A DNA stretch of 64,000 nt from Gemmatimonadales bacterium (GTDB lineage Bacteria; Gemmatimonadota; Gemmatimonadetes; Gemmatimonadales; GWC2-71-9). The notes beneath the pieces were generated by a model. It worked only from the letters and a program-made list of their open reading frames with translations. It was not told the origin of the DNA and did no database searches. The stretch is from contig JBFIHA010000013.1 in assembly GCA_041602035.1 (NCBI GenBank), positions 1,464 to 65,463 of the forward strand. Direction: 5' to 3'. The translations under genes and the position numbers were made by a program. This document shows positions 43,529-58,606 of this stretch, piece by piece (position 1 is the first letter of the stretch; each line of letters begins with the position of its first letter).

Positions 43529-44173
43529 TCAGGGTCGGCTCCGAGTCGCGGACGCGGCGTCCAGATAAGCAACAATCTTCGAGCGCGCGTCCGGCGTGAG
43601 GGGCTGGTTCAGCATGGTGGCCAGGTGCGCGTCCATGCGCTCCACGACCGCCGCCCAGTCCGCGGATGGATACTGCCGGGGATCGGGGATCTCGTGACAG
43701 CGACTGCATACCGCCACGTACAGGGCACGGTCGGGTCCGGGCGGCAGGGTCACGCTGCTTACCCTGATCGCGTGCTCGATGAAGTACCGCACCATGACGG
43801 TGCGCTCGGCGGATGAGGGTATCGGCACCCGATGGGGATCCGTGAGACCTTCTATCCTGAGCCACATGCGTCGAAACACACGCGGCCAGTCGGCTGCCGA
43901 GTGGATCTGTGGTGTCGCGAGGGCATGACACGCGGTGCAGTAGCGTTCGTGGAGGTGCGCGCCCTCGGATTCGGGATCCGGAAGATCCGCCCGCGTGACA
44001 CCTGGCGGGGGAAGCGCGACCTTCGCCGAGGCGAGGAGGATCGCCTCCTGATCCGTCGACGCCGCCAACTCGCCTCGAGACGCGTCGGCGGACTGCCGCT
44101 CACCACAGGCGAGCAGACAGAGCAGCGCCACGGACGGAACGCGCCACAGTCGGTGCTGGCACACGGATGTCAT
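43529..44173 (-). CDS. Diheme c-type cytochrome (lipoprotein-like signal)
   Basis: Two CxxCH motifs (CTACH, CSRCH), each followed by a similar ADWP/ADWAAVVERM segment. Confidence 0.7.
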   Translation of the reverse strand: MTSVCQHRLWRVPSVALLCLLACGERQSADASRGELAASTDQEAILLASAKVALPPPGVTRADLPDPESEGAHLHERYCTACHALATPQIHSAADWPRVFRRMWLRIEGLTDPHRVPIPSSAERTVMVRYFIEHAIRVSSVTLPPGPDRALYVAVCSRCHEIPDPRQYPSADWAAVVERMDAHLATMLNQPLTPDARSKIVAYLDAASATRSRP

Positions 44174-44276
44174 CGATGCTCCCCTCGAAAGACCGAGTGT
44201 GAGCGGCACACCGGGGCTTCGACCGGCCACACGGAGCTGACGATGAATGCTGTCAACCGCGGCGTCAAGCGGCGTC

Positions 44277-45653
44277 TCACGCCGACAGGCCGTGCTTTTC
44301 CATCCGATACCGCAGGGTGTCGCGCGTGACCCCGAGCAACTTGGCGGCCTGGGTCACATTGCCGTTTGTTCGTGCTAGGGCCTGGCGAATGAGTCCGAGC
44401 TCGACACTCGTGAGCTCCACTCCCTCCGGTGGGAGCGTGATTAAGGCGGACGCGTCGTCCGTCGCCGCCTCGTGAGCGGAGAGTTCCGCCGGGAGGTGTT
44501 CGGGGTGGATCTCCAATGTCTCTTCGAGAATGAGCGCGCGCTCGAGCACGTTTCGCAGCTCCCTGACGTTGCCTGGCCATGTGTACCCTTCGAGGACGCG
44601 CAGGGCCTCTCCGGTCAGCCGGGGCGGATCGCGTTTGAGATCGCGGGCGAGCTGCTGCACGAAGTACTCCGCAAGCGGGGCGATGTCGTCCGGGTGCTCC
44701 CGGAGCGGAGGAATGGTGATGGGCACCACGTTGAGTCGATAGAACAGGTCCCCACGGAATGCCCCCTCGGCGATCGCCGACTCGAGGGCCCGGTTCGTGG
44801 CAGCAATCACCCGAACGTCCACCGTGACATCGCTGGTTCCCCCCACCCGCTTGAATCGCGAGTCCTCGAGGAACTGCAGGAGCTTGGCCTGCGCCGCCAA
44901 TGGCATGTCCCCGATCTCATCAAGCAAGAGCGTCCCGCCGTCGGCGAGCTCTGCCAGGCCTTTCTTCCGTTCGCGCGCGTCGGTGAATGCGCCTCGCTCG
45001 TGGCCGAATAGCTCTGATTCCACCAGATGCTCGGGCAGCGCCGTGCAGTTGACTTGCAGGAACGGCTGATCACGACGGTCGCTCTGGACATGAATCACAC
45101 GCGCCAAGAGATCTTTGCCCGTCCCGCTCTCGCCGCGCAGGAGGACCGTGGCTCGCCCGGCCCGGGCGACCTTCCCCACGGCCTCCACCAGGTTCCGGAG
45201 CGCCGCGGAACGCCCCACGACCCGGACGTCGGCAAACTGCCAACTCTGTTGCTCGCTGAGCACCGTGACCCGCTGCCGAAGGCGGCGCGTTTCGAGTCCC
45301 TTATCGATCGTGATCAGCAAATCGTCGAGGTCCGGGGGTTTCTGCAGGAAGTGGTACGCGCCCGCCTTCACGGCCTGTACGGCGGTTTCGATTTCGCCGT
45401 AGGCCGTCACGATGACCACCACCAGCTCCTGATCGAGCTCGCGAAATCGACTCAGGAGTTCGAGGCCGTCCCCGTCGGGGAGCCGCAAGTCGAGCAGCAT
45501 GAGGGCGGGCGACGCCCGCTCCAACAGGGCGAGTGCCTCACGACCGCTGCCGGCACCATGCACCGTGTATCCGGCTGCGCCGAGGTGCTCGATGAGCCAC
45601 GTACGCGTGAGCTCGTCGTCGTCCACGACCGCCAGGACGGGGCGAGCCGTCAT
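44277..45653 (-). CDS. Sigma-54-dependent response regulator (NtrC/AtoC family enhancer-binding protein)
   Basis: Receiver domain, AAA+ domain with GESGTGKD and ERGAFTDA (GAFTGA-type loop), C-terminal Fis-type HTH. Confidence 0.92.
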   Translation of the reverse strand: MTARPVLAVVDDDELTRTWLIEHLGAAGYTVHGAGSGREALALLERASPALMLLDLRLPDGDGLELLSRFRELDQELVVVIVTAYGEIETAVQAVKAGAYHFLQKPPDLDDLLITIDKGLETRRLRQRVTVLSEQQSWQFADVRVVGRSAALRNLVEAVGKVARAGRATVLLRGESGTGKDLLARVIHVQSDRRDQPFLQVNCTALPEHLVESELFGHERGAFTDARERKKGLAELADGGTLLLDEIGDMPLAAQAKLLQFLEDSRFKRVGGTSDVTVDVRVIAATNRALESAIAEGAFRGDLFYRLNVVPITIPPLREHPDDIAPLAEYFVQQLARDLKRDPPRLTGEALRVLEGYTWPGNVRELRNVLERALILEETLEIHPEHLPAELSAHEAATDDASALITLPPEGVELTSVELGLIRQALARTNGNVTQAAKLLGVTRDTLRYRMEKHGLSA

Positions 45654-47467
45654 TCCGATCCACCGCGCGGTGTCGGAACGGCGAACACGAGCGTGAACGT
45701 CGACCCCCGCCCGGGCTCGCTCGTGACCTCGATGAGCCCTCCATGCCGATCAATGATTCCGCGGGAGATTGCCAAGCCCAGCCCGGTCCCCTCATGCTTG
45801 GTCGTGTAGAACGGCCGAAAGATGTGCTCGAGGTCCTGCTCGGCAATGCCCGTCCCCGTGTCGGAGATCCCGATCCGTACCCGCTCGCCGGCCCGGGCAA
45901 CGGTCAGGGTGAGCACGCCGCCGGGGTTCATGGCCTGAATGCCGTTCAGCGCAAGGTTCACGAGCGTTTGGGTCATGAGGTCCGGGTCGATCAAGATCTT
46001 CGGCACATCCGGCGCCAGACGCGTCTCCACCCGTACCCCCGCCGCTTCGGCCTGGGCGCGAATGAGTCCCACGACGCGGTCGATCAGCCTGCCGGGATCA
46101 CTGAGAATCGTGCGGGGGTCCTTCGGTCGCGCGTAAGACAACAAATCCCGAATGGCTGCTTCGATCCGGTGAAGCTGCGCATGCATCTGTGCGATGATGT
46201 TCCGGACCGCGTGGTCCTCACCGACTCGCTTCGCCAGGAGGCCCAGGCCGCTGGTCACTCCGATGAGCGGGTTCTTGATCTCGTGCGCGATACCTGATGC
46301 CAGTTCCCCGACGGAGGCGAGCTGCGCCGCGCGCCGCATCTCCTGATCATGCAGCTCCTGGATCTGCTGTGTGGAGGCATGGAGTTCGCGGGACATCTGA
46401 TTGAACGTGCGCCCCAACTCACCCAGCTCGTCCGGCCGATCGATTCGCACCTCCACCCCAAGCTCCCCTCCTCGGAGGCGTTCGGCCGCGTGCACGAGGC
46501 GGCGCAGCGGCGCCACGATCGACCGAGCCACGAACCAGACCACTCCCACGAGGAGCAACGCAAAGCCTGCCTGGAGAACCGCGGCGAACAGCGCGAGGCC
46601 CTGTAGCTGGCCCATCACGCCGGAGACGGGTGCTTCCGCGATGTACCGCCATGGCCGCCCGGGAACCGGCACCGCCGCAGCGAGCACCTCGGTTCCTTCA
46701 TAGTTGAGGTAGCGCTCGGTGGGTCCGCTTCCGGCATCCGCGAGCGGGGACGGCAGTCTCGCCGCGTACTCCAGCCCCGGGTGCGCGTGCGAGACGAACA
46801 GTGGCCGGCCCGCGCGGTCCACGACGAAGGTGTGAATGTCCCCAGCTAGATGCGGCGAGATCCGGAGGAATCCCTCGAGCCCTTCGAAGCCGATGCTCGC
46901 CGCCAGCACCCCGACGGCCACCCCGTCGGCGTCCCGCAGGGGGGTACCAAGCCGGTACACCGGGCTCACGAGACCGGCAACGGCCTCGAGATCCTCGCCG
47001 AAGAACCGCTCTTGACGGCCCACCGCGTGCAGCAACGTCCCCGACCAGTCGGCACCGACACGACTGGGCTGCGTCGCCGCGAGCACGATGCCCCGGGTGT
47101 CCAACACGAACAGCTCGGTCATCGGCGGGAGTCCGGGGAGCACCTGAGTCAGACGCTGCTGCAGCGCGTCCGCCCTGTACGGGTCGGCGGGCTCGCCCGG
47201 GCGCGCCGCGGCCAGCTGGAGGACCGCCTGGGCGACGTCGAGGTTTCGCGCGACCACGGCGTCCAAGTTCCGTTGGTGCCGCTCCACCTCGCTGGCCACG
47301 AACCGCGCTTCCACCTCCGTGATCGCGGTGAGATAACGCTTCACTTGGCTCTCGAGAATCCGGCGCGTGACCTGGTAGCCAACCGTGTTTGACACGAACA
47401 GCGGCACCAGCGAGAGGACGAGAAACCAGGCGAGGATGCGCCGGCTGAGCCCACCCGTCAGCGGCAC
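45650..47467 (-). CDS. Sensor histidine kinase (periplasmic Cache-like sensor, HAMP, HisKA, HATPase)
   Basis: Two TM segments. HAMP domain. H-box HEIKNPL. GTGLGLAIS G2 box. ATGA overlap with the NtrC-like gene. Confidence 0.9.
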   Translation of the reverse strand: MPLTGGLSRRILAWFLVLSLVPLFVSNTVGYQVTRRILESQVKRYLTAITEVEARFVASEVERHQRNLDAVVARNLDVAQAVLQLAAARPGEPADPYRADALQQRLTQVLPGLPPMTELFVLDTRGIVLAATQPSRVGADWSGTLLHAVGRQERFFGEDLEAVAGLVSPVYRLGTPLRDADGVAVGVLAASIGFEGLEGFLRISPHLAGDIHTFVVDRAGRPLFVSHAHPGLEYAARLPSPLADAGSGPTERYLNYEGTEVLAAAVPVPGRPWRYIAEAPVSGVMGQLQGLALFAAVLQAGFALLLVGVVWFVARSIVAPLRRLVHAAERLRGGELGVEVRIDRPDELGELGRTFNQMSRELHASTQQIQELHDQEMRRAAQLASVGELASGIAHEIKNPLIGVTSGLGLLAKRVGEDHAVRNIIAQMHAQLHRIEAAIRDLLSYARPKDPRTILSDPGRLIDRVVGLIRAQAEAAGVRVETRLAPDVPKILIDPDLMTQTLVNLALNGIQAMNPGGVLTLTVARAGERVRIGISDTGTGIAEQDLEHIFRPFYTTKHEGTGLGLAISRGIIDRHGGLIEVTSEPGRGSTFTLVFAVPTPRGGSE

Positions 47468-47488: not shown

Positions 47489-47869
47489 CTACGGCGTCCG
47501 ATCCGCAGAACGCTCTCCCTGCAGCAACGCGTCGAGCAGGGGCTCGTGCCCAGCCACCTTGACGATCCACTGCACGTCTCGCGGCACGGGACGCACTGTG
47601 TCGGCCGGGGGGGTCGCGCTGTAGATCACCATGCGCGGCGTCCGGTTGGCTGCACGCGCCACCTGCTCCAAGAGAGAGACCCCATCCATCCCCGGCATCC
47701 GGTAGTCCGTGACGACCACATCAGGCTCAACGTCAACCACGAGGCGCATCGCCTCGTCACCGCGCTCTGCGGTCCACACCTGGTAGCGGGCATCTCGCAG
47801 TGCGGCGGCGACGCTGCCAAGCACGAGGCGATCGTCGTCTACCACCAAGATCTTGGCTCGAGCAGGCAT
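47489..47869 (-). CDS. Stand-alone response-regulator receiver protein
   Basis: GGGAGG RBS. ILVVDDD, VVTDYRMPGMDG motifs. Confidence 0.8.
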   Translation of the reverse strand: MPARAKILVVDDDRLVLGSVAAALRDARYQVWTAERGDEAMRLVVDVEPDVVVTDYRMPGMDGVSLLEQVARAANRTPRMVIYSATPPADTVRPVPRDVQWIVKVAGHEPLLDALLQGERSADRTP

Positions 47870-48007
47870 CGATCTCGCCTCCCGGCCTTTCGGCTGATCC
47901 TGTTGGGGCCGGGGCTGTCGTAGGGCAGGCAACACCGACACCAATCCGGTGGGTCATTTCCTCAACCAGCCGCAACGCAAGATCGATACCCCTTCAAAGA
48001 GGCAGCG

Positions 48008-48095
48008 TTTGCCCCTATCTCTGGGGCCAAATCCTCTTCTTGTCAATCGAGATTGGGTCAAATGCTCAATTCGGTAGGGGCAAATACCCAATCTC
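48008..48095. promoter_or_regulatory. Two perfect 10-bp inverted repeats in the divergent control region: TTTGCCCCTA (48008-48017) / TAGGGGCAAA (48075-48084), and GAGATTGGGT (48049-48058) / ACCCAATCTC (48086-48095)
   Basis: Read directly, in the AT-richer segment about 75-160 nt upstream of the sigma-54-like element. Confidence 0.5.
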
Positions 48096-48167: not shown

Positions 48168-48182
48168 TGGCACACCCTCTGC
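48168..48182 (+). promoter_or_regulatory. Sigma-54 (-24/-12) promoter candidate: TGGCAC-N5-CTGC
   Basis: GG and GC are spaced exactly as in the TGGCAC-N5-TTGC consensus, about 85 nt upstream of the ATG at 48268. A sigma-54 activator is encoded divergently. Confidence 0.5.
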
Positions 48183-48267: not shown

Positions 48268-48615
48268 ATGGATGTCGTGACTCGAATCGGAGCAGTCGTG
48301 GGAGTGCTCACCATTGTTGGATCAGCCACCGCCGTCGCGCAGGTGGATGCCGCCGCGACATATGCCCAGAAGTGCGCCATGTGCCACGGAGCGGCCGGAG
48401 CGGGAGACGGCGCCGCCGCAGCTGCGCTCAATCCCAAACCACCCGATTTCACCGCTGCCGAGTTCCAGAAGACTCGGACCGACGAGGCGCTCGTCGCGGT
48501 CATTACCGACGGCAAGAGCCCGATGATGCCGTCGTACAAGAGTCAATTATCGGCGGACGAGATCACCGCGCTCGTCGCGTACCTTCGCACCTTGGGTCCG
48601 GCGGAAGGCCAGTAG
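48268..48615 (+). CDS. Monoheme class I cytochrome c
   Basis: GGGAGG RBS. Signal peptide. CAMCH. Distal MMPSY Met region. Confidence 0.85.
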   Translation: MDVVTRIGAVVGVLTIVGSATAVAQVDAAATYAQKCAMCHGAAGAGDGAAAAALNPKPPDFTAAEFQKTRTDEALVAVITDGKSPMMPSYKSQLSADEITALVAYLRTLGPAEGQ

Positions 48616-48618
48616 TCG

Positions 48619-49176
48619 GTGCCGGCGCGGGAGGGGATGGCGCAGCGGCTTGGGGATCTGCGCGGCCGCCTGCCACGGTCGTACCTGGCCGTCGCCGTGG
48701 GTGTGGTGCTCGTCCTGGCCGTCGTAGTCCCGGTACTCGCGCTTAGCAGCCCGCGCGTTCCCCAGCCGGTAGCGTTCAATCACCTGAAGCACACGCAGGA
48801 TCTGGGACTCGGGTGCGAGTTCTGCCACCCGTACGCCCAGACACGCGCGCATTCCGGCCTCCCCGATGCAACGACCTGCTCGGCGTGCCACGCCGCCCCG
48901 CAGGGCACCTCGGCCGAGGCTGCACGCGTCACGGAGCTCATCACGGCAGGCGATCCATTGCGGTTCAACAAGCTGTTCCGGATGCCCGACCACGTGTTCT
49001 ACACTCATCGCCGTCACGTCGCGATCGCGGAGCTCAGCTGTGAGACCTGCCACGGGGCCGTCGGACAGACGGAGCGCCCGCCCGCCCGCGCCTTGGTCAA
49101 GGTCGATATGGACTTTTGCATGGATTGTCATCGTGAGCAGGGCGCGACGCTGGACTGCAACGCGTGCCACCGATAA
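48619..49176 (+). CDS. Membrane-anchored pentaheme cytochrome c (ActA/NrfB-like)
   Basis: Five CxxCH motifs: CEFCH, CSACH, CETCH, CMDCH, CNACH. N-terminal TM anchor. Confidence 0.85.
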   Translation: MPAREGMAQRLGDLRGRLPRSYLAVAVGVVLVLAVVVPVLALSSPRVPQPVAFNHLKHTQDLGLGCEFCHPYAQTRAHSGLPDATTCSACHAAPQGTSAEAARVTELITAGDPLRFNKLFRMPDHVFYTHRRHVAIAELSCETCHGAVGQTERPPARALVKVDMDFCMDCHREQGATLDCNACHR

Positions 49177-49192
49177 GGGGAGGAATACGCGG

Positions 49193-51556
49193 ATGAAACC
49201 CACGCGACGCGAATTCCTCTGGGCGATGGGCGCGACAGCTGCCTCCGTTGGCCTCAGCTGGTCGCCGGACTTCGGGTGGGCGCCCCAGGTGCCCGACGAC
49301 GTGGGGTGGGCTCCCGGCACCGAGCAGTTCGTCAACTCGGCGTGTCTGATCTGCCCGGCCCGCTGCGGCGTTCGCGGCCGGGTCGTCGACGGTCGCTTGG
49401 TGCAGCTCGGGGGCAATCCCTTCCACCCCGTCAACGCCGGCGGGCTCTGTCCTCGAGGCATTGCCGGCGTCCAGATGCTCTACCACCCGGATCGCCTCGG
49501 GTCGCCATTGCGACGCGTCGGTGCCCGTGGAAGCGATTCATGGGAAGCGATCGGGTGGGACGAGGCGCTGCGCCAGTTGGGCGAGCGCCTCGCCTCGCTG
49601 CGCGCGAGCGGGCGACCGGAAGCCCTTGCGCTCGTGGCGGGATACTGCGCGGGGACCATGCACGATCTGTGGCGCCAGTTCCTGCAGAGCTACGGGTCGC
49701 CGAACTACGTGGCCGACGACTACGACGACGGTTCCGCAACCGTGATGGCGCTCATGCACGGCAACCCGCGGCGCCCTGGATACGATCTGGAGCGCGCGGG
49801 GTACGTGCTGTCGTTCGGCTCGCCGATGTTCGAGTCTTGGTGGTCACCGCTGCAGGCATACGCGGCGTTCGCGGGTCCCGAGGGATCGGACGAGGGACGC
49901 ACCCGCTTCGTGCAAATCGACACGCGCTTCTCCCGCACCGCCGCGCATGCCAACGAATGGGTTGGGATCCACCCGGGCACGTTCGGGGTGCTCGCCCTGG
50001 GGATCGCCTACATCCTGATCAGGGACGAGCTGTACGACGCCGACTTCGTGGAACGGCACGTCGCGGGATTCCAGGACGCGATCGACGCGGGTGGCGCCCT
50101 TCAGCAGGGCTATCGGTCCATCGTCATGCGCCACTACCGCACCGAGGAGGTCTCGGCGATCACGGGAGTGCCCGTTGCGCGGATTACGGCCATCGCGCGC
50201 GCGTTCGCACGGACGGAACATCCGATCGCCGTGTTCGGCCACGAGGTGACCCACGCTCCGAGTGGGCTGCTCACCGGAATGGCCGTGCACAGCCTCAACG
50301 TGTTGATGGGCAGTGTCGGTCGTCCCGGTGGCGTGATGTTCGGCGACGACGCTCCACTGGACCCACTCCCCGACCCGCGTATCGATGCGGTGGCCCGCGC
50401 GGGGCTCGGCCGCGGAGCCTTGGCTCGGACACCCGCACCGTTTGGCGAGGGCGACCCGGCATCGCGGTTCGCGGCGGCCGTCGGCGCCAGCCCCAGTGAC
50501 ACGATCGATACCCTCCTTCTCTACTACGCCAATCCGCTAGCGTCATCGCCGCGTCCGGACGCATGGCGCGAGGCCCTCGACCGAATTCCGTTCGTCGTCG
50601 GCTTCTCGCCGTTCCTCGACGAGACTACGGCGCACGCCGACCTGATCCTGCCCGACCTACTGGCCTACGAGCGGTGGCAGGACGCGCCGGCGCCCCAATC
50701 CCACCCCTATCCAGTGTGGGGGGTGGCGCGGCCGCTGGTCGCGGCGCCCCCGGGCGGCATGCCGACCGGCGACGTGGTCCTGGCGGTGGCTCGTCAGTTG
50801 GGCGGGGGCGTGGGCGCAAGCCTCCCGTACGAGCGCATCGAGCTGCTGCTCAAGGAGCGGGCTCGCGGTCTGTTCCGGGTACAGCGCGGCATGACGTTGG
50901 GAGACTCGTTCGAGCGCGAGCACCATCGGCAGATGCAAGAACGCGGCTGGTGGCTGCCTGAACACACCGAGTTCGAGGCCTTCTGGGATGAGCTGGTCCA
51001 GCGTGCGGGCTGGACGGACCTCTATATGGACGAGACCGACCCCACCGGGGTGGCCCGCACCCCAAGCGGCCGCATCGACCTGATGCCGGCCCAATTGCTT
51101 GCCGCGCTTGCGACCGCCGGCCGGGGCACGGCGCTGTATATGGACGTGGCGGCGATCCGCACAACTAATCCCGACGAGTTTCCGTTGCGGCTGATCCCGT
51201 ACCGTGTCTCGACCCTCTCATCGGGCACGTTGGCCCTCGAGCGCTGGCTGGGCGAGACCCCGGGCCTGTTTCCGGAAGTGCACTGGGACCCCTGGGTCGA
51301 GGTGGCACCGGCAACGGCGGACGCGCTGGGTCTGGACGACAACACCGAAGTGTGGGTCGTTGCCGCCGCGGGTCGATACCGCGCGCGCCTCAAGGTGTTT
51401 CCGGGCACCGCGCCCGAGAATGTCTGCGCCCCGTACGGACTCCGACATCCGGACGGCGAGCTGGCCAACCCGCTGCAGCTGCTCGACGGCTCCAGCGATC
51501 CATTGACCGATCGGCCGAATTGGTTCACCACTTTCGTGCGCCTCGAGCGGGCGTAA
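49193..51556 (+). CDS. Tat-exported molybdopterin-oxidoreductase-family (MopB) subunit, ActB1/QrcB/PsrA-like
   Basis: GGGGAGG RBS. Twin-arginine signal TRREFL. CX2CX3CX27C FS0-type motif (CLICPARC...C). MopB-like length. Confidence 0.85.
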   Translation: MKPTRREFLWAMGATAASVGLSWSPDFGWAPQVPDDVGWAPGTEQFVNSACLICPARCGVRGRVVDGRLVQLGGNPFHPVNAGGLCPRGIAGVQMLYHPDRLGSPLRRVGARGSDSWEAIGWDEALRQLGERLASLRASGRPEALALVAGYCAGTMHDLWRQFLQSYGSPNYVADDYDDGSATVMALMHGNPRRPGYDLERAGYVLSFGSPMFESWWSPLQAYAAFAGPEGSDEGRTRFVQIDTRFSRTAAHANEWVGIHPGTFGVLALGIAYILIRDELYDADFVERHVAGFQDAIDAGGALQQGYRSIVMRHYRTEEVSAITGVPVARITAIARAFARTEHPIAVFGHEVTHAPSGLLTGMAVHSLNVLMGSVGRPGGVMFGDDAPLDPLPDPRIDAVARAGLGRGALARTPAPFGEGDPASRFAAAVGASPSDTIDTLLLYYANPLASSPRPDAWREALDRIPFVVGFSPFLDETTAHADLILPDLLAYERWQDAPAPQSHPYPVWGVARPLVAAPPGGMPTGDVVLAVARQLGGGVGASLPYERIELLLKERARGLFRVQRGMTLGDSFEREHHRQMQERGWWLPEHTEFEAFWDELVQRAGWTDLYMDETDPTGVARTPSGRIDLMPAQLLAALATAGRGTALYMDVAAIRTTNPDEFPLRLIPYRVSTLSSGTLALERWLGETPGLFPEVHWDPWVEVAPATADALGLDDNTEVWVVAAAGRYRARLKVFPGTAPENVCAPYGLRHPDGELANPLQLLDGSSDPLTDRPNWFTTFVRLERA

Positions 51557-51569
51557 GGAACCGAGAGCG

Positions 51570-52253
51570 ATGACACGCTGGGGCATGGCGATCGATCTGG
51601 ACCGGTGCACGGGTTGTGCGGCGTGTGAGGTGGCGTGCAAGAGCGAGAACAACGTCGCCACGGTTCCCCCCGACCAGGCCGAAAAGGGTCGAGTCGTGAG
51701 CTGGATGCGCGTCATGGCACACGCGGTAGGGGAATTCCCCGAGACCCACCTCGAGTTCTACCCGCGGCCCTGCATGCACTGCGACAACCCCCCCTGCATC
51801 AAGGTGTGTCCGGTGCGTGCCACCTACATCGACCCCGAGGGCATCGTCGGACAGATCTACCCGCGGTGCATCGGGTGCCGGTACTGCGCCAACGCCTGTC
51901 CCTACACCGTGAAGTACTTCAACTGGTACGGACCGGAGTGGTCGGACTCGGAGCGTCAGCATCTGAACCCGGATGTCTCGCCTCGGACCGTTGGCGTTAT
52001 CGAGAAGTGCTCCTTCTGCCACCACCGCTTGCAGCGTGCTCGGGAACAGGCCCGGGCCGAGAACCGCGACGTGCGCGAGGAGGACTACCAGCCCGCGTGC
52101 GCCGAGATCTGTCCCACCAGGGCGATCGTGTTCGGCGACCTCGACAACCCAACGCACCACGTGGCCGAGCTGAAGGAGGATCCGCGGGCAATGCGCATCA
52201 TGGAGGATCTCGGAACCCAGCCGAAGGTCTACTACCTCAGGGCGAGGAGGTGA
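51570..52253 (+). CDS. Four-cluster 4Fe-4S ferredoxin-type subunit (NrfC/PsrB/ActB2/QrcC-like)
   Basis: Four Cys groups: CTGCAACEVAC, CMHCDNPPCIKVCP, CIGCRYCANACP, CSFC...CAEICP. Confidence 0.88.
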   Translation: MTRWGMAIDLDRCTGCAACEVACKSENNVATVPPDQAEKGRVVSWMRVMAHAVGEFPETHLEFYPRPCMHCDNPPCIKVCPVRATYIDPEGIVGQIYPRCIGCRYCANACPYTVKYFNWYGPEWSDSERQHLNPDVSPRTVGVIEKCSFCHHRLQRAREQARAENRDVREEDYQPACAEICPTRAIVFGDLDNPTHHVAELKEDPRAMRIMEDLGTQPKVYYLRARR

Positions 52254-52254
52254 G

Positions 52255-53598
52255 ATGCGCCGCGAGGTAGCGGAGAAACTGGCCAGCCTCCCCCCGGACG
52301 AGCGGGTCCTGCTCCGGCCGCTCGTCGACACATCGCGGGGATTCTACATCATGGCGGGCGTGTTCGGCGGCATCAGCCTCTTGGGCCTCGTCGCGTACAT
52401 CCTGCAGGTGCGCTACGGCCTGGGCCGTACCGGACTGAATCGGCCTGGATACTGGGGCATCTACATCATCTGCTTTGTTTTCTTCATCGGGATCAGCCAC
52501 GCGGGCACCTTGATTTCCGCAATCCTGCGGGTCAGCAAGGCGGAGTGGCGCCGTTCCATCACACGCTCAGCAGAGCTGATCACGGTGCTTGTGATCGGGT
52601 TCGGTGCCATCCAGCCGATCATCGACATGGGCCGCCCCGATCGGGTGCTCAACGTAATCTTGCACGCGCAGTGGCGCTCTCCGCTCCTGTGGGACGTGAT
52701 CAGCATCGGCCTCTATTTCATGTCCTGCACGATCTATCTCTATCTCCCGCTGCTCCCGGACCTCGCGATCATTCGGGACTCCGGCATCAAGGCACCGCGC
52801 TTCTATCGCTTCTTGGCGGCGGGCTACAACGACACGCCGGTGCAGCGGTTTCGGTTGGAGCGCGCCATCGGCGTCCTTTCGATCGTCGTGATCCCGATCG
52901 CGGTCTCGGTACACACGGTGATCGGCTGGATCTTTGCGATGACGCTGCGGCCCATGTGGCACAGCACGATCTTCGGACCCTACTTCGTTATGGGGGCCAT
53001 CTATTCCGGCATCGCCGCCATCCTCGTGGCGATGGCAGTGCTCCGCCGCGTGTACCACCTCGAGAACTATTTCAAGGATGTCCACTTCGACTACCTGGGT
53101 CGCCTGCTGCTTATCCTCAGTCTGTTGTGGTTCTATTTCACGTTCGCGGAATACCTCACGGCATTCTATGGCGGGGAGCCCGGCGAGATGCGCACGTTCT
53201 GGGCGAAGCTCACGGGACCATTCGCCCTGCCCTTCTGGGCGATGGTCGCAGGGTGTTTCATCATCCCGCTGGCGCTCATGGCGCGGCAGGCCACGCGGAC
53301 CCCGCGTGGCACCACGATCGCCGGCATCGCCGTGGTCATCGGGATGTGGCTCGAACGGTACAACATCGTGGTGCCGACGTCGGTCAATCCCCGCTGGGAG
53401 ATCGAGTCCATCGGGCACTACCTGCCGTCGTGGATCGAGCTGGCGATCATGGCCGGGACCTTCTCGGGGTTCGTTCTCCTGTACATGATCGCCACCAAGA
53501 TCGTACCCATCGTCTCGATCTGGGAGATCAAGGAGGGCCGCGCAGTGGTGCAGGAGGTCGCCGAACGGGTGGCGAGATACTCCGGGAGCCACCCATGA
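52255..53598 (+). CDS. NrfD/PsrC-family polytopic quinone-interacting membrane subunit (ActC/QrcD-size, about 10 TM)
   Basis: 447 aa, highly hydrophobic. Starts 1 nt after the FeS gene stop. ATGA overlap with the next gene. Confidence 0.82.
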   Translation: MRREVAEKLASLPPDERVLLRPLVDTSRGFYIMAGVFGGISLLGLVAYILQVRYGLGRTGLNRPGYWGIYIICFVFFIGISHAGTLISAILRVSKAEWRRSITRSAELITVLVIGFGAIQPIIDMGRPDRVLNVILHAQWRSPLLWDVISIGLYFMSCTIYLYLPLLPDLAIIRDSGIKAPRFYRFLAAGYNDTPVQRFRLERAIGVLSIVVIPIAVSVHTVIGWIFAMTLRPMWHSTIFGPYFVMGAIYSGIAAILVAMAVLRRVYHLENYFKDVHFDYLGRLLLILSLLWFYFTFAEYLTAFYGGEPGEMRTFWAKLTGPFALPFWAMVAGCFIIPLALMARQATRTPRGTTIAGIAVVIGMWLERYNIVVPTSVNPRWEIESIGHYLPSWIELAIMAGTFSGFVLLYMIATKIVPIVSIWEIKEGRAVVQEVAERVARYSGSHP

Positions 53599-54827
53599 CC
53601 CCGCTCTTCCGATGCCGCCAGTTCCCCCGATGGGTAGCCGGTGCAGCGTTCATGTGGATGGGCCTCGTTATGGGCCCGTCACTCGAGGCCCAGTCCGAGC
53701 AGATCTACCCGGGCGATCCCGTGGCCGGCCGGCGGCTGTTCGTCGAGCGGCGGTGTGTGCGCTGCCACGCCATCTGGGGCAACGGCGGCACCCTGGGACC
53801 GGATTTCGCGATGGTTGGGGCCGGCCGCAGTCTCCCACAACTCGCCGGGATGTTTTGGAACCACACCCCGCAGATGATCGAGACCGTTCGTGATCGCGGG
53901 TTCGAATGGCCGAGGTTCACAGAGACAGAGCTTGCCAATCTGATCAGCTACATCTACTACGTGAAGCTGTTCGACGAGCCCGGCGATCCTACGCTGGGAG
54001 AGCGCTCATTCCGCGACCGGCGCTGCGTGGACTGTCACGCCGTGGGCGGATCCGGAGGGACCTCCGGTACGGCCCTCGATGGCTACGCCAGGTACATCGC
54101 GCCGATCGCGCTCGCCCAGGGCATGTGGAACGCCGGCCCGAGCATGCAGGCGATGCAGCGGGCACGGGGCACCGGTCAACTAGAGTTTATGGGCCGCGAG
54201 ATCGCGGATATTCAGGCCTACATACGCTCGGCATCCCGGGTCGGCGATCGCGAAATCGTGTACCTGCAGCCTCCGAATCCCGACAACGGGCGCCGCCTGT
54301 TCGTGCAGCGGCAGTGCGCGCGGTGCCACGGGCCGCAGGGTCGCGGCACGGCAGCCGGCCCAAATCTGCGGGCGGCAACGGAACGCTTGCGCGTGGCGCA
54401 AATCGCGGGGCAGCTGTGGAATCACGCGTCGCAAATGGCGTCGGCGATGCAGGCCGGGGGCATGACCTTCCCGCGGTTCCGCGGCACCGAGCTAGCCGAC
54501 CTGATCTCGTTTCTCTATTATCTGCGATTCTATGAGACCGCAGGTGATCTGCGGGTCGGCGAGCAACTGTTCGTGACCAAGGGCTGCGCCGCGTGTCACC
54601 CCACTGGAGGAGATACGGCGGCGGGCCCCGATCTGTCGCAATCGGAGGTGCTCCGCACCCCGCTGGGACTCGCGACGGCTATGTGGGACCATGCGCCCGC
54701 CATGTATGCCCAGATTCGGTCGGCGGACGTGGAGTGGCCCCGGTTCGAGGGCGATGAGATGCGGGATCTATCGGTCTATTTGCGAACCCTGGCTTCGGGA
54801 GGACGGGAGGGGACGGCAGCACGCTGA
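53595..54827 (+). CDS. Cytochrome c made of four tandem monoheme class I-like domains
   Basis: CVRCH, CVDCH, CARCH, CAACH, each followed by a GPDL-like segment, MWNH-type motif, P.M and E..DL..YL in a unit of about 100 aa. Confidence 0.85.
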   Translation: MTPLFRCRQFPRWVAGAAFMWMGLVMGPSLEAQSEQIYPGDPVAGRRLFVERRCVRCHAIWGNGGTLGPDFAMVGAGRSLPQLAGMFWNHTPQMIETVRDRGFEWPRFTETELANLISYIYYVKLFDEPGDPTLGERSFRDRRCVDCHAVGGSGGTSGTALDGYARYIAPIALAQGMWNAGPSMQAMQRARGTGQLEFMGREIADIQAYIRSASRVGDREIVYLQPPNPDNGRRLFVQRQCARCHGPQGRGTAAGPNLRAATERLRVAQIAGQLWNHASQMASAMQAGGMTFPRFRGTELADLISFLYYLRFYETAGDLRVGEQLFVTKGCAACHPTGGDTAAGPDLSQSEVLRTPLGLATAMWDHAPAMYAQIRSADVEWPRFEGDEMRDLSVYLRTLASGGREGTAAR

Positions 54828-54889
54828 CAGTCGGGGCCGCCTGCAGCAGCGCGTGAACCCGCGGCCTGCGCGCAACGGAGGGCTCAACT

Positions 54890-56107
54890 ATGCGATCGCA
54901 CCTGTCCACCCGACAGCCTCTGGCACCGTGGTGTCTGATCGGCGCCATGTCCATCGCTCCGGTGCTGGCCTTCTCCGCCCCGCCGCTGGAAGCACAGGAG
55001 CGTCCGCTCCCCACACAGAACGCCATGGCCGGTGCCAGCGTGTTCGGCACCGAGGGATGCGTCAAGTGTCACGCGATCGATGGGCTCGGCGGCACCGAGG
55101 GCCCGGACCTGGCACGCTTTCCGACCTCGCGCACCTTCTACGACCTGGCAGCCGCGATGTGGAACCACCTGCCGGCGATGGTGTCACGCATGCGGGATTT
55201 GGGGATCCGTGAGCCCCACCTCTCTGACCGAGAAACCGGCGACCTCATCGCCTTTCTCTTCTCTTTGGACTACTTCGACACGCCCGGCGACACGGTACGG
55301 GGCCGCGATCTGTTCGACACGAAGCGATGCGTGCTCTGTCATCAGATCGGCGGGGTCGGTGGCGTGGTCGGTCCGAGCCTCAGCACGTCCGGCACGATCC
55401 AGGCGCCGATCGAGTTCGCGACCGCAATGTGGAATCATGGCCCCGCGATGAGCGGTGCGATGCAGGCGCGAGGGATTGCCAGACCGCGGTTCACGGGGAC
55501 CGAGTTACGGGACTTGATCGCCTACATCAAGACGGACAAGCAGGGATTTCCGTCGGGGCCGCTGTATGTGCTCCCTGGGCTGGCGGGGGAAGGCCGACAG
55601 GTGTTCGTCGAGAAAACCTGCAACAACTGCCACGACGTCGAGGGACTCGGCGCTCACGCCGCGCCCGACCTCGCCGATCGAGGGGTGAGCGGCAGTCTCC
55701 TTACGTTTGCCGCGGCCATGTGGAACAAGGCGCCGGCCATGACGGCGTCGATGCGAGCCCGAGGGCTCTCGGTGCCCGCCCTCTCGCCGACGGAGATGGC
55801 GGACCTCGTCGGGTATCTCTACTCCGTGAAGTACTTCACGCAGTCGGGGGACGTTCGACGTGGACGGCAGCGAATCCGCACGAAAGGGTGCCTCGGGTGC
55901 CACACCCTCGACGGTCGAGGGACCGGCGGGGCTCGTGAGTTCCGGGAGATGCCACCGTTCAGGACGCCGGCCGCGATCACCGCCGCCCTATGGAATCACG
56001 TGCTGCTGGGCGAGCAGGGCGGCACCGCGGTCGACTGGCCGGTCTTCAAGGCCGACGAGATCGCCGACGTGGCCGCGTTCTTGATGTCGCTGTCAGGGGG
56101 GCGCTGA
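54890..56107 (+). CDS. Second four-domain monoheme-repeat cytochrome c, paralog of the protein at 53595..54827
   Basis: CVKCH, CVLCH, CNNCH, CLGCH with the same repeat signature (AMWNH/AMWNK/ALWNH). Confidence 0.85.
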   Translation: MRSHLSTRQPLAPWCLIGAMSIAPVLAFSAPPLEAQERPLPTQNAMAGASVFGTEGCVKCHAIDGLGGTEGPDLARFPTSRTFYDLAAAMWNHLPAMVSRMRDLGIREPHLSDRETGDLIAFLFSLDYFDTPGDTVRGRDLFDTKRCVLCHQIGGVGGVVGPSLSTSGTIQAPIEFATAMWNHGPAMSGAMQARGIARPRFTGTELRDLIAYIKTDKQGFPSGPLYVLPGLAGEGRQVFVEKTCNNCHDVEGLGAHAAPDLADRGVSGSLLTFAAAMWNKAPAMTASMRARGLSVPALSPTEMADLVGYLYSVKYFTQSGDVRRGRQRIRTKGCLGCHTLDGRGTGGAREFREMPPFRTPAAITAALWNHVLLGEQGGTAVDWPVFKADEIADVAAFLMSLSGGR

Positions 56108-56341: not shown

Positions 56342-58435
56342 ATGAAGCGATCCATGCGTTGGATGTGGGCGGTCGCCGCGCTCGTGGCGACCCCGCTGAC
56401 CGCACAGCAGGAGGAGGATCCCTACCTCTGGTTGGAGGACGTGGAGGGGGCGGAAGCCCTCGAATGGGTCGAGGCGCAAAATGCCACGACCGTCGCGCGG
56501 TTGGAAGCCTACGCGGCTTTCCGCGACTTTTACGAGCAAAGCCTCGCGATTTTGAACTCCACCCAGCGCATTCCCTACGTCTCGATCATGGGAGCGCACG
56601 TGTACAACTTCTGGCAGGACGCCCAGCACGAGAAGGGTATCTGGCGCCGCACGTCGCTCACGGACTACCTGACACCCTCACCGAGCTGGGAGGTCGTCTT
56701 GGACCTCGATGCTCTCGCCGCCGCGGAGGGCGAGAACTGGGTCTGGAAGGGTGCTAACTGCCTCTACCCGGACTACAACAGGTGCGCAGTGAACCTGTCG
56801 CGCGGCGGCGCCGACGCCGTCGTCGTCCGCGAGTATGACGCCGCGATGCGCCGGTTTGTCGACGGGGGCTTCCACCTTCCCGAGGCCAAGGGTGGGGTGT
56901 CGTGGCTCGACGAGAACACGCTGTATGTCGGCACCGACTTTGGTGAGGGTTCCCTGACGACGTCGGGATACCCGCGCATGGCCAAGCTGTGGCGACGCGG
57001 CACTCCGCTCCGTGAAGCCGAAACCATCCTCGAGGGCGCGGTCACCGACATGGGGCTGTGGGGTGGCGTCCAGCACACACCCGAAGGTCGCTACGAGATC
57101 GTCACCCGGGCACTGACGTTCTACTCCCGCGAGACCTACCTGCGGCGCGGCGACGAGATGGTGAAGCTCGATCTCCCGGCCGACGCGACGCCGTTCGGCG
57201 TCTTCAAGCATCAGCTCCTCGTTCAATTGAAATCTGACTGGACCGTCGACGGCGCAACCTATCCACAGGGAGCGTTGCTCAGCATCAGCCTCGGCGCGTT
57301 TCTCACAGGATCCAAGGACTTCACGGTCATCGTCGCTCCGGACGAGCGGTCGTCCATCTCAGGAATCAGAACGACCAAGAACCTCCTGCTGGTCAACATG
57401 CTGGAAAACGTCCGGAGCACGTTGTACGAGTACCGTTTTCAGGATGGCGCATGGGCACGAGCCCCGGTCGAGCTGCCGCCGTTCGGGACCATCCAGCTCG
57501 GTAGCGCCGACGAGAACTCGGACACGTACTTCATTAACTTCGAGAGCTTCCTGATCCCGAGCTCGTTGTACCTGGCCACGAATACCGGTGAAACCACGAC
57601 TGTGAAACAGGTGAAGAACCTGCCGGCGTTCTTCGACGCTGAGCCCTTCACGGCGCAACAGTTCGAGGCCACGTCACAGGACGGGACGCAGATCCCATAC
57701 TTCGTCGTGCACCGGAAGGACCTGCAGTTCGACGGCGCCAATCCGACGCTACTGTATGGGTATGGAGGGTTCGAGATCTCCATGGAACCGTCGTACTCGG
57801 CGACCATTGGCTCGGCCTGGCTGTCGCGCGGCGGCGTCTACGTCTTGGCGAACATCCGCGGGGGTGGCGAGTTCGGGCCGCGGTGGCACCAGTCCGCACT
57901 CAAGGAGCATCGACAGCGCGCGTACGACGATTTCATCGCGGTTGCCCAGGACCTCGTCGCCCGGGGGGTCACGTCTCCGGCCCGCCTAGGCATCCGGGGT
58001 GGGAGCAATGGTGGGCTACTCGTGGGCGCGGCCTTCACCCAACGCCCGGACCTATTCGGCGCGGTTGTCTGCCGAGTGCCGTTGCTGGACATGAAGCGCT
58101 ACAACAAGCTGCTCGCCGGCGCTTCGTGGATGGCCGAGTACGGCAATCCGGACATCCCGGAGGAGTGGGAGTACATCCGCCGGTACTCGCCGTACCACAA
58201 CGTGCATCCCGACCGTGCCTATCCACGAGTGTTCTTCCTCACGTCGACGCGCGACGACCGGGTGCATCCGGGCCACGCGCGCAAGATGGTCGCGAAGATG
58301 ACGGATCAGGGACACGAGGTGCTCTATTACGAGAACACCGAAGGCGGGCATGCAGCCGCGACCACAAACCGGCAGCGGGCATACATGGGCGCCCTCGAGT
58401 TCGCGTATCTGTGGAGCGAGTTGGGCCGGAACTAG
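56342..58435 (+). CDS. Prolyl oligopeptidase family serine peptidase (S9A)
   Basis: Signal peptide. DPYLWLED N-terminus. Catalytic GGSNGGLL. C-terminal DDRV...GGH triad region. Confidence 0.9.
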   Translation: MKRSMRWMWAVAALVATPLTAQQEEDPYLWLEDVEGAEALEWVEAQNATTVARLEAYAAFRDFYEQSLAILNSTQRIPYVSIMGAHVYNFWQDAQHEKGIWRRTSLTDYLTPSPSWEVVLDLDALAAAEGENWVWKGANCLYPDYNRCAVNLSRGGADAVVVREYDAAMRRFVDGGFHLPEAKGGVSWLDENTLYVGTDFGEGSLTTSGYPRMAKLWRRGTPLREAETILEGAVTDMGLWGGVQHTPEGRYEIVTRALTFYSRETYLRRGDEMVKLDLPADATPFGVFKHQLLVQLKSDWTVDGATYPQGALLSISLGAFLTGSKDFTVIVAPDERSSISGIRTTKNLLLVNMLENVRSTLYEYRFQDGAWARAPVELPPFGTIQLGSADENSDTYFINFESFLIPSSLYLATNTGETTTVKQVKNLPAFFDAEPFTAQQFEATSQDGTQIPYFVVHRKDLQFDGANPTLLYGYGGFEISMEPSYSATIGSAWLSRGGVYVLANIRGGGEFGPRWHQSALKEHRQRAYDDFIAVAQDLVARGVTSPARLGIRGGSNGGLLVGAAFTQRPDLFGAVVCRVPLLDMKRYNKLLAGASWMAEYGNPDIPEEWEYIRRYSPYHNVHPDRAYPRVFFLTSTRDDRVHPGHARKMVAKMTDQGHEVLYYENTEGGHAAATTNRQRAYMGALEFAYLWSELGRN

Positions 58436-58573: not shown

Positions 58574-58606
58574 GCGGGGCCTCCACCCGAGGCCCCGCTT
58601 GTGTTT
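58574..58606 (+). terminator. Second terminator-like hairpin: GCGGGGCCTC / GAGGCCCCGC, then TTGTGTTTG
   Basis: Perfect 10-bp stem, 5-nt loop and T-rich tail, 60 nt upstream of the Crp-like ATG. Confidence 0.55.

Follow-up and report, generated by a model that had tools for sequence, protein, structure and literature searches.

A conserved five-gene module related to both Qrc and alternative complex III in Gemmatimonadota and Acidobacteriota

Introduction

Modular complexes built around membrane subunits of the NrfD family are known in general (PMC8076601). Two of them, the quinone reductase complex Qrc and alternative complex III (ACIII), are the reference points for the system described here, a cluster of seven genes at positions 48268-56107 of a 64,000-nucleotide stretch of DNA (hereafter the window) from a Gemmatimonadales bacterium (GenBank assembly GCA_041602035.1, contig JBFIHA010000013.1). 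In Qrc, the MopB-type subunit QrcB is cofactor-free (PMC6303296, PMC13059093), and ActB1 of the ACIII of Rhodothermus marinus has been reported to be cofactor-free as well. The ACIII-like clusters of iron oxidisers contain a split actB1 with a CX2CX3CX27C [4Fe-4S] motif and a separate actB2 (Kato et al. 2015, PMC4643136), and an ACIII-like "cluster 4" of the MBNT15 bacterium SHF-111 contains a four-heme ActE-like cytochrome and is not linked to oxidase genes (PMC9386147).

Gemmatimonadota and the Acidobacteriota of soils and sediments are abundant yet poorly cultured. The former use menaquinone and seldom have an annotated bc1 complex or ACIII: in a survey of 326 Gemmatimonadota genomes, bc1 was found in only 23% and annotated ACIII in <10% (PMC9426454), which leaves open the route from the menaquinone pool to cytochrome c-dependent oxidases and N2O reductase.

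In this study we show that the core of the cluster is a module of five genes, in which a Qrc-like periplasmic arm appears to be combined with an ActC-type membrane subunit. It very likely belongs to the Qrc/ACIII lineage and interacts with quinones, and we consider it moderately likely that it encodes a proton-coupled menaquinol:cytochrome c oxidoreductase, i.e. a five-subunit complex of this lineage accompanied by two accessory cytochromes. We found no description in the open-access text of the five-gene module, of its mosaic of Qrc arm and ActC anchor, of the signatures of its NrfD and iron-sulfur (FeS) subunits, or of its spread in Gemmatimonadota and Acidobacteriota. Single features have precedents, namely the split ActB1 with an FS0-type cysteine motif (iron oxidisers) and the tetraheme ActE-like gene (MBNT15).

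Results

Organization of the cluster

A preliminary description of the window had reported seven tightly packed, co-directional genes, which was borne out by the listing of open reading frames (ORFs), by inspection of start codons and ribosome-binding sites, and by the gene calls on identical public contigs. All seven lie on the forward strand. The first, g1 (48268..48615), encodes a monoheme class-I cytochrome c of 115 aa with a signal peptide and one CxxCH motif, and the second, g2 (48637..49176; alternative GTG start at 48619), a membrane-anchored pentaheme cytochrome c homologous to ActA and QrcA. These are followed by g3 (49193..51556), for a MopB-fold subunit of 787 aa exported by the twin-arginine translocation (Tat) system; g4 (51570..52253), for a four-cluster FeS subunit of 227 aa, a homologue of QrcC and ActB2; and g5 (52255..53598), for an NrfD-family membrane subunit of the ActC type (447 aa). 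The last two genes encode cytochromes c with four class-I domains and four CxxCH motifs each, i.e. the secreted g6 (53595..54827; 410 aa) and its paralogue g7 (54890..56107; 405 aa). As shown below, g2 to g6 constitute the core of the module, and g1 and g7 are optional accessories.

Two details of the earlier description were found again in the ORF coordinates: g4 and g5 are 1 nt apart, and the stop codon of g5 overlaps the start codon of g6 (ATGA), which couples the translation of g6 to that of g5. Pfam searches assigned class-I cytochrome c domains to g1, g6 and g7, a c7/c3-type multiheme domain to g2, 4Fe-4S dicluster domains to g4 and NrfD to g5. The earlier figure of 14 CxxCH motifs was reproduced in a recount over g1, g2, g6 and g7 (1+5+4+4). 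A fifteenth C..CH string of g4 (CSFCH, residues 147-151) lies inside an FeS-ligand cysteine group and was therefore excluded; automatic heme counting would exceed the true count by one owing to this string, and a similar feature occurs in some, but not all, distant family members (e.g. in loci L089, L090 and L092).

A mosaic of Qrc-like and ACIII-like subunits

For comparison we used two bona fide Qrc clusters (L093 and L094) and canonical act clusters of Gemmatimonadota (L025, L036 and L089) as controls, together with the solved ACIII structures 6F0K, 6BTM, 6LOD and 8K9E. The best NCBIfam models for g2, g3 and g4 are QrcA (92 bits, cut-off 180), QrcB (293 bits, cut-off 440) and QrcC (310 bits, cut-off 400), and g5 scores only 28 bits against QrcD (cut-off 570). 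In the Qrc controls, all four cut-offs are passed or almost passed, with scores of 204 (QrcA), 501-518 (QrcB), 391-397 (QrcC) and 630-650 bits (QrcD). The g3 protein also scores against the PhsA and ArrA models.

Pairwise identities point in two directions. The pentaheme protein g2 is 33-34% identical to QrcA and 32% to ActA, and g4 is 49-52% identical to QrcC and 45% to ActB2. For g3, the identity to QrcB is 31% over the full length, and that to ActB (33-36%) is confined to three separate fragments. The relation is reversed in g5, which is 35-37% identical to ActC and 23% to QrcD. These values indicate a mosaic, in which a Qrc-like periplasmic arm is placed on a membrane subunit of the ActC type. 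The cluster is therefore, to judge by its sequences, an atypical relative of ACIII and Qrc that belongs to neither. In this respect our data agree with the preliminary description, which had noted the order pentaheme/MopB/FeS/NrfD and had called the cluster atypical and ACIII/Qrc-like.

Two of the differences that had then been listed stand only in part. The MopB and FeS subunits are indeed encoded by separate genes, but this is normal for Qrc and has a precedent in the ACIII-like clusters of iron oxidisers (PMC4643136). As for the stated lack of ActD, ActE and ActF, a hidden Markov model (HMM) built from five ActD sequences produced no match at E<=10 when all frames of the 64-kb window were searched, and with ActF as query g5 was the sole match in the window, but g1 is weakly ActE-like, with 27% identity to the ActE of a canonical ACIII cluster (BLASTP E 3e-11; single-sequence HMM E 4.6e-7). 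However, g1 sits upstream of the pentaheme gene, and such a gene is present in only 21 of 79 loci. In the 59 loci with a MopB-FeS-NrfD core and downstream sequence, no ActD or ActF gene was found inside the operon (0/59), and none of the loci has more than one NrfD gene in the module.

Moreover, in L025, L036, L039, L055 and L089 a complete canonical act cluster (fused ActB, ActC, a Pfam-recognised ActD, ActE and ActF) adjoins the module and shares 25-46% identity with it. In L089, the Pfam ActD model matches a gene of the neighbouring canonical cluster and no gene of the module. This arrangement indicates that the module is a distinct paralogous system and not a degraded ACIII.

Conservation and distribution of the module

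A search of the full library with g3 yielded 1,009 representative clusters at E<=1e-30. The best 150 relatives are MopB proteins of about 790 aa with 28-59% identity, except for a few truncated fragments, and four proteins among these closest 150 representatives score above the QrcB cut-off. A scan of species-level genomes with an alignment of 10 MopB sequences identified 80 loci, including 65 of Gemmatimonadota (MopB identity 55-84%), 13 of Acidobacteriota or unclassified metagenome-assembled genomes (MAGs; 37-44%) and one of Planctomycetia (36%). One of the loci counted with Gemmatimonadota (L079, CAXMRU010000282.1) is labelled Akkermansiaceae, yet its MopB identity (63%) and gene order are typical of Gemmatimonadota; it therefore probably reflects a binning error rather than transfer into Verrucomicrobiota.

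Synteny was compared across these genomes. Among loci with enough sequence upstream of MopB, a pentaheme gene lies directly 5' of it in 67 of 70 (55/57 in Gemmatimonadota, 12/13 elsewhere), and among those with enough sequence downstream of NrfD, a g6-type four-domain cytochrome gene lies directly 3' of it in all 59 (48/48 and 11/11). The second, g7-type copy is present in only 26 of 53 loci (25/43 and 1/10), and a g1-type monoheme cytochrome precedes the pentaheme gene in 21 of 79 (20/65 and 1/14). Thus, of the two large repeat cytochromes that had been noted downstream of NrfD, both are present in the window but only g6 is part of the core. Clustering of all flanking ORFs across the loci revealed no additional universal gene and, taken with the synteny counts, this defines the conserved unit as five genes, i.e. 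those for the ActA-like pentaheme cytochrome, MopB, FeS, NrfD and the four-domain class-I cytochrome c.

The core recurs in about 60 genomes of Gemmatimonadota. The order of its five genes is kept across three phyla, and that of the first four also in more distant relatives at 33-36% identity. With strong homologues for every gene and the order kept in about 80 independent loci, the arrangement exceeds chance.

The membrane subunit

The approximately ten transmembrane segments originally ascribed to g5 correspond to ten hydrophobic segments in our analysis. Profile comparison places the protein with ActC, since it matches the ActC chains of all four solved ACIII structures with E values from 2e-63 (R. 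marinus, 6F0K chain C) to 1e-53, in contrast to its negligible score with the QrcD model. A canonical ActC of Gemmatimonadota shows the same NCBIfam pattern as g5, i.e. a weak DsrP match and a negligible match to QrcD.

Individual residues were read from a HMMER alignment to 6F0K chain C in the numbering of R. marinus ActC (Sousa et al. 2018, PMC5928083). The g5 protein keeps 18 of the 20 residues of the proposed proton half-channels (13/14 cytoplasmic and 5/6 periplasmic), as well as Ser245 and the quinone-pocket residues W82, I86, F89, P136, L166 and D169. Two of the three charged residues of the quinone site are altered (H139D and D253I). Across the family, H139D (67/67), D253I/V (67/67) and Y323T (66/67) distinguish NrfD of the module from ActC, and these changes are shared by more distant members; the four ActC sequences keep H139, D253 and Y323. 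In the His139 column QrcD has Asp and DmsC has His, and Asp is also found there in PsrC of Wolinella succinogenes (PMC13059093).

The FeS subunit

The g4 protein has no signal peptide of its own and matches the C-terminal FeS domain of R. marinus ActB with an E value of 1e-57. Its assignment as a four-cluster protein proved correct: 16 Cys residues were counted in four groups, and all of them are invariant in 79/79 family members. This includes position 103 (second position of the third group), at which the family has Cys in 79/79 members and ActB has Thr in 4/4 sequences (R. marinus and three Gemmatimonadota), the latter residue marking the 3-Cys motif of the proximal [3Fe-4S] cluster. Tyr105, between two Cys residues of the third group, is also invariant in the family and, to judge from the published description of its position, would be equivalent to Tyr113 of QrcC, which was shown to be essential (PMC13059093).

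The QrcC-like proteins of the Qrc controls carry the same all-Cys motif (CIGCRYC), so this motif separates the g4 family from ACIII/ActB and not from Qrc. Cys103 was also considered as proof of four [4Fe-4S] clusters, but this was dropped, given that QrcC has Cys as well despite the reported presence of one [3Fe-4S] cluster in Qrc. The QrcC genes concerned (L093, 8295-9134; L094, 8321-9097) encode all 16 Cys residues, CIGCRYC included. A further feature of these two Qrc clusters is that their QrcA has 5, not 6, CxxCH motifs.

The MopB subunit

The g3 protein starts with a Tat motif (TRREFLW) and contains the Pfam domains PF04879, PF00384 and PF01568. Among solved structures it is closest to ArrA (E 1e-44) and PsrA (3e-35), with ActB following at 1e-11 to 1e-14. 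In a neighbour-joining tree of MopB sequences, which has no support values and is a rough guide only, the g3 clade is placed apart from QrcB, ActB and the enzyme groups. An AlphaFold2 (AF2) model of g3, of moderate quality (pLDDT 69), has its best fold match in ArrA (TM 0.62); the fold search confirms the MopB fold and says nothing on cofactor binding or pterin cavities.

The full FS0-type motif reported for this protein was located at C51-x2-C54-x3-C58-x27-C86. Of 145 representatives that cover the wider family, about 134 keep its cysteines. The fourth Cys is followed by Arg (CPRG, as in PsrA), in a column with K/R in 87/145 family representatives that is not strictly conserved. Among the canonical, fused ActB proteins next to the module, those of L025 (3706-6657, reverse strand) and L055 (2502-5453, reverse strand) keep a full FS0-type motif (CRECPAGCG...C), and that of L036 (2030-5338, forward strand) has lost it. 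FS0 retention in ActB1 may thus be commoner than assumed.

The DDYDDGS segment, noted in the preliminary description as lacking an obvious ligand, does follow YGSPNYV (the two together at residues 167-181), and there is no Cys or selenocysteine (Sec) in the Mo-ligand column. Depending on the alignment, this column holds Asp178 or Asp179, where ArrA and PhsA have their ligand Cys. In the wider MopB family, whose gene order is unchanged, the segment varies. All of ArxA, PhsA, ArrA and PsrA have Asp in the PGTD motif, for which g3 has Phe; most g3 orthologues have His in this column, the family as a whole Glu, Tyr, His or Phe, and ActB Glu. Since both the Cys/Sec ligand and the PGTD Asp are lost, g3 probably has no Mo/W cofactor. 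No gene for a TorD-like chaperone was found in the cluster, in contrast to an arx cluster recovered by the same search.

The latter cluster (L087, 5915-12332) is located on plasmid pORIO3 of Cereibacter azotoformans; among plasmids, it provides the best match to g3 over the full length (28% identity). It resembles the anaerobic arsenite oxidase (arx) type, with genes for FeS, MopB, FeS, NrfD and a TorD-like chaperone as well as a PhnD-like binding protein, a kinase and a regulator, and it lies within an arsenic-resistance island of this conjugative plasmid. Pfam bit scores were tried as a gauge of MopB degeneration and rejected, because the ArxA-type MopB scores like g3 (PF00384, 83 versus 78.5 bits).

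The cytochromes

The g2 protein has an N-terminal transmembrane helix (residues 17-35) and matches the four solved ActA chains with E values of 1e-18 to 4e-21. The monoheme g1 was assigned to Cytochrome_CBB3/Cytochrom_C by Pfam. The g6 and g7 proteins are 36% identical over 378 aa (BLASTP), and each consists of four class-I domains of about 90 aa, with CxxCH, a G-x-GG-x-GP(D/S)L stretch and a (M/L)WNHxPxM-like motif. In domain 4 of g7 (residues 320-405) the last motif is replaced by ALWNHVLLGEQ, with loss of both candidate Met ligands, and the heme of this domain may be ligated differently. A search of the PDB with the confident AF2 model of g6 (pLDDT 79) gave no significant whole-protein match, only generic single class-I cytochrome c domains.

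Upstream genes and putative sigma-54 control

Three regulatory genes lie divergently upstream of the operon: one for a stand-alone receiver-domain response regulator (47489..47944, reverse strand; Pfam Response_reg; 126 aa on identical contigs), which has homologues in related loci, one for a sensor histidine kinase (45650..47467, reverse strand) with a periplasmic dCache_1 domain, HAMP, HisKA and HATPase (Pfam), and one for a sigma-54-dependent response regulator of the NtrC/AtoC type (44277..45653, reverse strand) with receiver, AAA+ and HTH_8 domains (Pfam Sigma54_activat). The last of these scores 436 bits against the NCBIfam model AtoC and 411 bits against NtrC, both under the cut-off, and the AtoS/ZraS likeness of the kinase is confined to its kinase core. 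The regulator families are uninformative as a clue to the signal, for the matches are to the generic AtoS/AtoC and ZraS/ZraR types. A kinase-activator pair near the module, with an activator homologue <=6.5 kb upstream of MopB, was found in 16/38 Gemmatimonadota loci and 9/10 loci of other phyla in which the upstream sequence was long enough.

The operon itself is preceded by a sigma-54 (-24/-12) promoter-like element, TGGCAC-N5-CTGC (48168..48182, forward strand), 86 nt upstream of the start of g1; no sigma-70-like site was found upstream of this gene. Near-identical elements occur at the same relative position in six loci (L002, L007, L015, L028, L033 and L034), and TGGAAC-N5-TTGCT occurs at a fixed position in Acidobacteriota loci. 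Matches scoring >=10/11 were found in 10 of 69 upstream regions and 8 of 500 random regions, i.e. with about nine-fold enrichment. The cluster thus appears to be sigma-54 dependent. About 75-160 nt upstream of the -24/-12 element, two perfect 10-nt inverted repeats (48008..48095), TTTGCCCCTA/TAGGGGCAAA and GAGATTGGGT/ACCCAATCTC, are candidate binding sites of the sigma-54 activator; the string TTGCCCCTATCT recurs upstream of the operon in L001, whose MopB is 67% identical.

Beyond the regulators, a gene for a diheme cytochrome c of the DHC family (43529..44230, reverse strand; Pfam PF09626, E 3.7e-8; two CxxCH; 214 aa in an independent call) has homologues in 20/65 Gemmatimonadota loci, i.e. 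it is a frequent and not a universal neighbour. Between this gene and one for a PD40-repeat protein lies a gene for a dehydrogenase of the SagB family or nitroreductase type (42433-43506, forward strand; TIGR03605, 129 bits; a 251-aa nitroreductase on identical contigs), with no obvious peptide-maturation partners seen nearby.

Neighbourhood in the window and in relatives

The window is unusually rich in genes for secreted or periplasmic peptidases (27451-39919 and 56342-58435), which points to an organotrophic lifestyle based on proteolysis. They include two of the M16 insulinase type (one fused to DUF3108), S9 of the DPP-IV type, S51 and M14, and g7 is closely followed by a gene for a prolyl oligopeptidase. 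The prolyl oligopeptidase gene is followed by a gene for a Crp/Fnr-family regulator (58601-59329, forward strand), whose counterpart in the closest relative (L007) likewise lies downstream of the module, and by one for a Ser/Thr kinase with a TPR-rich C-terminal region (59374-61647, forward strand).

In other relatives the module lies amid a multiheme-FeS-NrfD triad, Rieske/cytochrome b genes and large multiheme cytochromes. Two MAGs of the marine-sediment type of Gemmatimonadota have a large electron-transfer island of this kind round the module (L085, 1262-9365 and 16947-19826; L086, 6303-8939 and 16907-22358), comprising a second multiheme-FeS-NrfD triad without MopB, several multiheme cytochromes with faint MtrC/MtrF-like matches and one or two Rieske/cytochrome b pairs.

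Discussion

Proposed function

Three features escaped the preliminary description: the ActC type of the NrfD subunit beside a periplasmic arm nearer to Qrc, the sigma-54 control, and the canonical ACIII adjacent to the module in relatives. With these included, we infer that the products of the five core genes assemble into a quinol-oxidizing complex that would work as follows. The g5 subunit would bind menaquinol/menaquinone at a periplasm-facing pocket, and g4 would accept electrons through its proximal cluster and pass them along the heme wire of the membrane-anchored pentaheme g2 to the four-domain g6. The gene for g6 stands where act clusters have that for ActE, and its product probably serves for docking or as the exit of electrons; g1, g7 and the nearby diheme cytochrome could act as soluble or extra carriers. 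The Tat system would export g3, with g4 carried along. Most likely, g3 is a structural, cofactor-poor scaffold that keeps only the FS0-type [4Fe-4S] cluster, like the ActB1-like proteins of iron oxidisers, and is probably not a molybdoenzyme. Quinone chemistry would be coupled to proton movement via the ActC-like half-channels and, as in ACIII, electrons would most likely pass from menaquinol to class-I cytochromes c of high potential. Expression would be conditional, with the dCache kinase and the NtrC-type activator driving the sigma-54 promoter in response to some periplasmic signal.

Oxidation of menaquinol is favoured because class-I cytochromes normally have high potentials and because Gemmatimonadota rely on menaquinone and often have no annotated bc1 or ACIII. 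Cytochromes with class-I CxxCH domains usually have potentials well above that of menaquinone, and the accessory cytochromes of the cluster all consist of such domains with conserved Met residues.

Several points weigh against this interpretation. The canonical ACIII or Rieske/cytochrome b genes that adjoin the module in several relatives would make a plain role as a second complex III partly redundant. The conserved His of the WNH motif could give bis-His, lower-potential hemes in g6 and g7. The Asp in place of ActC His139 does not indicate direction, since it occurs in QrcD, a quinone reductase, as well as in PsrC, a quinol oxidase; an attempt to read the direction from this column was rejected on these grounds, in accordance with the earlier statement that direction is not decidable from sequence. 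As regards g3, Asp179 and Arg88 (like Tyr177) are invariant in 37 Gemmatimonadota orthologues, and Asp can ligate Mo in some members of the family, e.g. in Nar-type enzymes. Retention of FS0 and of all 16 FeS cysteines leaves an intact wire into the MopB core, as a working molybdoenzyme needs. Furthermore, the top 50 fold matches of the g3 model contain no ActB chain, its likeness being to ArrA, Nap and PsrA.

Alternative interpretations

Alternatively, the same complex may run in reverse, as a cytochrome c:menaquinone oxidoreductase, which we regard as rather unlikely. Periplasmic donors such as Fe(II), reduced sulfur or cytochrome-linked dehydrogenases would then reduce g1, g6 or g7, and electrons would reach menaquinone via g2, g4 and g5. 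This flow would be electrogenic, as in Qrc, or would go uphill by drawing on the proton gradient, a mode suggested for the ACIII-like complex of iron oxidisers. The periplasmic arm is closer to Qrc, a quinone reductase, than to ACIII, and the quinone site has the Asp of QrcD; however, the membrane subunit itself is of the ActC and not the QrcD type. Iron oxidisers, for which reverse flow has been proposed, have conserved ACIII-like clusters that contain this FS0 motif (PMC4643136). Among relatives of the module, large MtrC/MtrF-like multiheme cytochromes, a porin and multiheme-FeS-NrfD triads suggest extracellular or lithotrophic exchange, the neighbouring canonical ACIII would leave the module free for the other direction, and some carrier MAGs come, going by their names, from sand-type, groundwater and sediment samples. 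The neighbourhood in the window, on the other hand, is peptidase-rich and gives no hint of lithotrophy. Nor does it contain the partners of Qrc: the donor of that complex is the low-potential tetraheme c3, and no tetraheme c3, hydrogenase or formate dehydrogenase was found in the regions of the window examined. A further point against reverse flow is that electrons would have to move uphill to reach menaquinone from class-I cytochromes c.

It is less probable still that g3 is a working enzyme with a Mo/W-bis(pyranopterin guanine dinucleotide) cofactor, ligated by Asp178/Asp179 or, as in arsenite oxidase, by no residue. In that case it would act on a periplasmic substrate sensed by the dCache kinase, and the quinone pool and the cytochrome c wire would share the electrons. 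The complete FS0 motif with its PsrA-like CPRG, the full set of 16 FeS cysteines and the invariance of Asp179, Tyr177 and Arg88 speak for such an enzyme, as do the proximity of g3 to ArrA/PsrA rather than ActB in both sequence and fold, and Pfam Molybdopterin-domain scores no weaker than those of the ArxA-type MopB of the plasmid cluster. Dedicated two-component control is also typical of substrate-specific respiratory enzymes, and the arx cluster has its own kinase and regulator. Yet the ligand segment varies in the wider family of the same gene order, the PGTD Asp is Phe in g3 and His in most orthologues, a TorD-type chaperone gene is missing from the cluster, and the nearest characterised relative, QrcB, is cofactor-free (PMC6303296, PMC13059093). 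A 10-helix NrfD subunit combined with a pentaheme cytochrome is, moreover, a hallmark of a non-standard "catalytic" subunit (Duarte et al. 2018).

A bolder variant, to which we attach little probability, is that the module represents an intermediate form, still extant, that links Psr-type molybdoenzymes with the cofactor-less Qrc/ACIII, and is a branched respiratory enzyme of a type not yet described. A still functional five-cluster FeS wire would then end at an Asp179-ligated Mo/W or other metal site in g3; the enzyme would oxidise or reduce the dCache-sensed periplasmic substrate and divide the electrons between menaquinone and the cytochrome c wire.

Finally, an ordinary ACIII with ActD, ActE and ActF encoded elsewhere in the genome is very improbable: although g2, g4 and g5 match ActA, ActB2 and ActC strongly, g1 is weakly ActE-like and our view is limited to 64 kb of the genome, complete canonical act clusters adjoin the module in five loci at 25-46% identity, no ActD or ActF occurs in the operon in 59 loci, Cys replaces the Thr of ActB in the FeS subunit (79/79 members versus 0/4), and NrfD has family-specific changes at ActC His139, Asp253 and Tyr323.

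Significance

Present in at least 65 species-level Gemmatimonadota genomes, the module is a candidate for the missing link between menaquinone and cytochrome c, or for a conditional branch. Proteins of the g3 type have only generic public names ("molybdopterin-dependent oxidoreductase" or "anaerobic selenocysteine-containing dehydrogenase"); given these names and the scores with the PhsA and ArrA models, metagenome surveys could miscount them as sulfur or arsenic reductases. The combination of a Qrc-like arm, an ActC-like subunit, a retained FS0 and an all-Cys FeS subunit bears on the origin of Qrc and ACIII from molybdoenzymes. The module may also be viewed as a natural minimal ACIII without ActD and ActF, which could be used to probe the proposal that ActF and Glu122 of ActD are required for coupling quinol oxidation to proton pumping.

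Comparison with known systems

With the Psr, Phs, Arr and Arx enzymes the module shares an FS0-containing MopB protein, a 16-Cys FeS protein and an NrfD anchor, and ArrA and PsrA are the solved MopB structures nearest to g3. The differences are that g3 has neither the Cys ligand nor the PGTD Asp, that the anchor is of the 10-helix ActC type and not the 8-helix PsrC type, and that the module adds pentaheme and tetraheme cytochromes and is devoid of a TorD-like gene.

Two ACIII-like systems can be set beside the module by their published descriptions only. Those of iron oxidisers share with g3 the motif formed by C51/C54/C58/C86, along with a separate FeS gene, but are described as actAB1B2CDEF, and thus differ from the module, which has no ActD or ActF. 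Cluster 4 of SHF-111 has neighbouring multiheme-FeS-NrfD modules that, by description, resemble those in L085 and L086; it is set apart, again by description in a genome-paper annotation, by the presence of ActD.

The likeness to Qrc lies in the same order of genes for a multiheme cytochrome c, a Tat-signal MopB-like protein, a separate four-cluster FeS protein and a 10-helix NrfD, as well as in the best NCBIfam models of g2, g3 and g4. In contrast to Qrc, all four subunits of the module stay below the equivalog cut-offs, the membrane subunit is not of the QrcD type, and g3 keeps the FS0 cysteines, two to three of which are absent from the QrcB-equivalog proteins P0203, P0245 and P0259. The module further adds a conserved four-domain class-I cytochrome c, and its partners are class-I cytochromes, whereas that of Qrc is tetraheme c3. 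The hosts also differ, being Gemmatimonadota and Acidobacteriota in one case and sulfate-reducing Desulfobacterota in the other.

Common to the module and ACIII are an ActA-like pentaheme subunit that starts with a membrane helix, a MopB-like and a four-cluster FeS component, and a membrane subunit of the ActC type, in which the proposed proton half-channels and the majority of quinol-pocket residues are kept. The module differs from ACIII in having no ActD and ActF, in encoding MopB and FeS by separate genes, and in the Cys that takes the place of the ActB Thr in the third cysteine group of the FeS subunit. Its NrfD protein has Asp for ActC His139, Ile for Asp253 and Thr for Tyr323, and a tetraheme cytochrome occupies the place of the monoheme ActE. 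Some genomes, moreover, encode both the module and a canonical ACIII.

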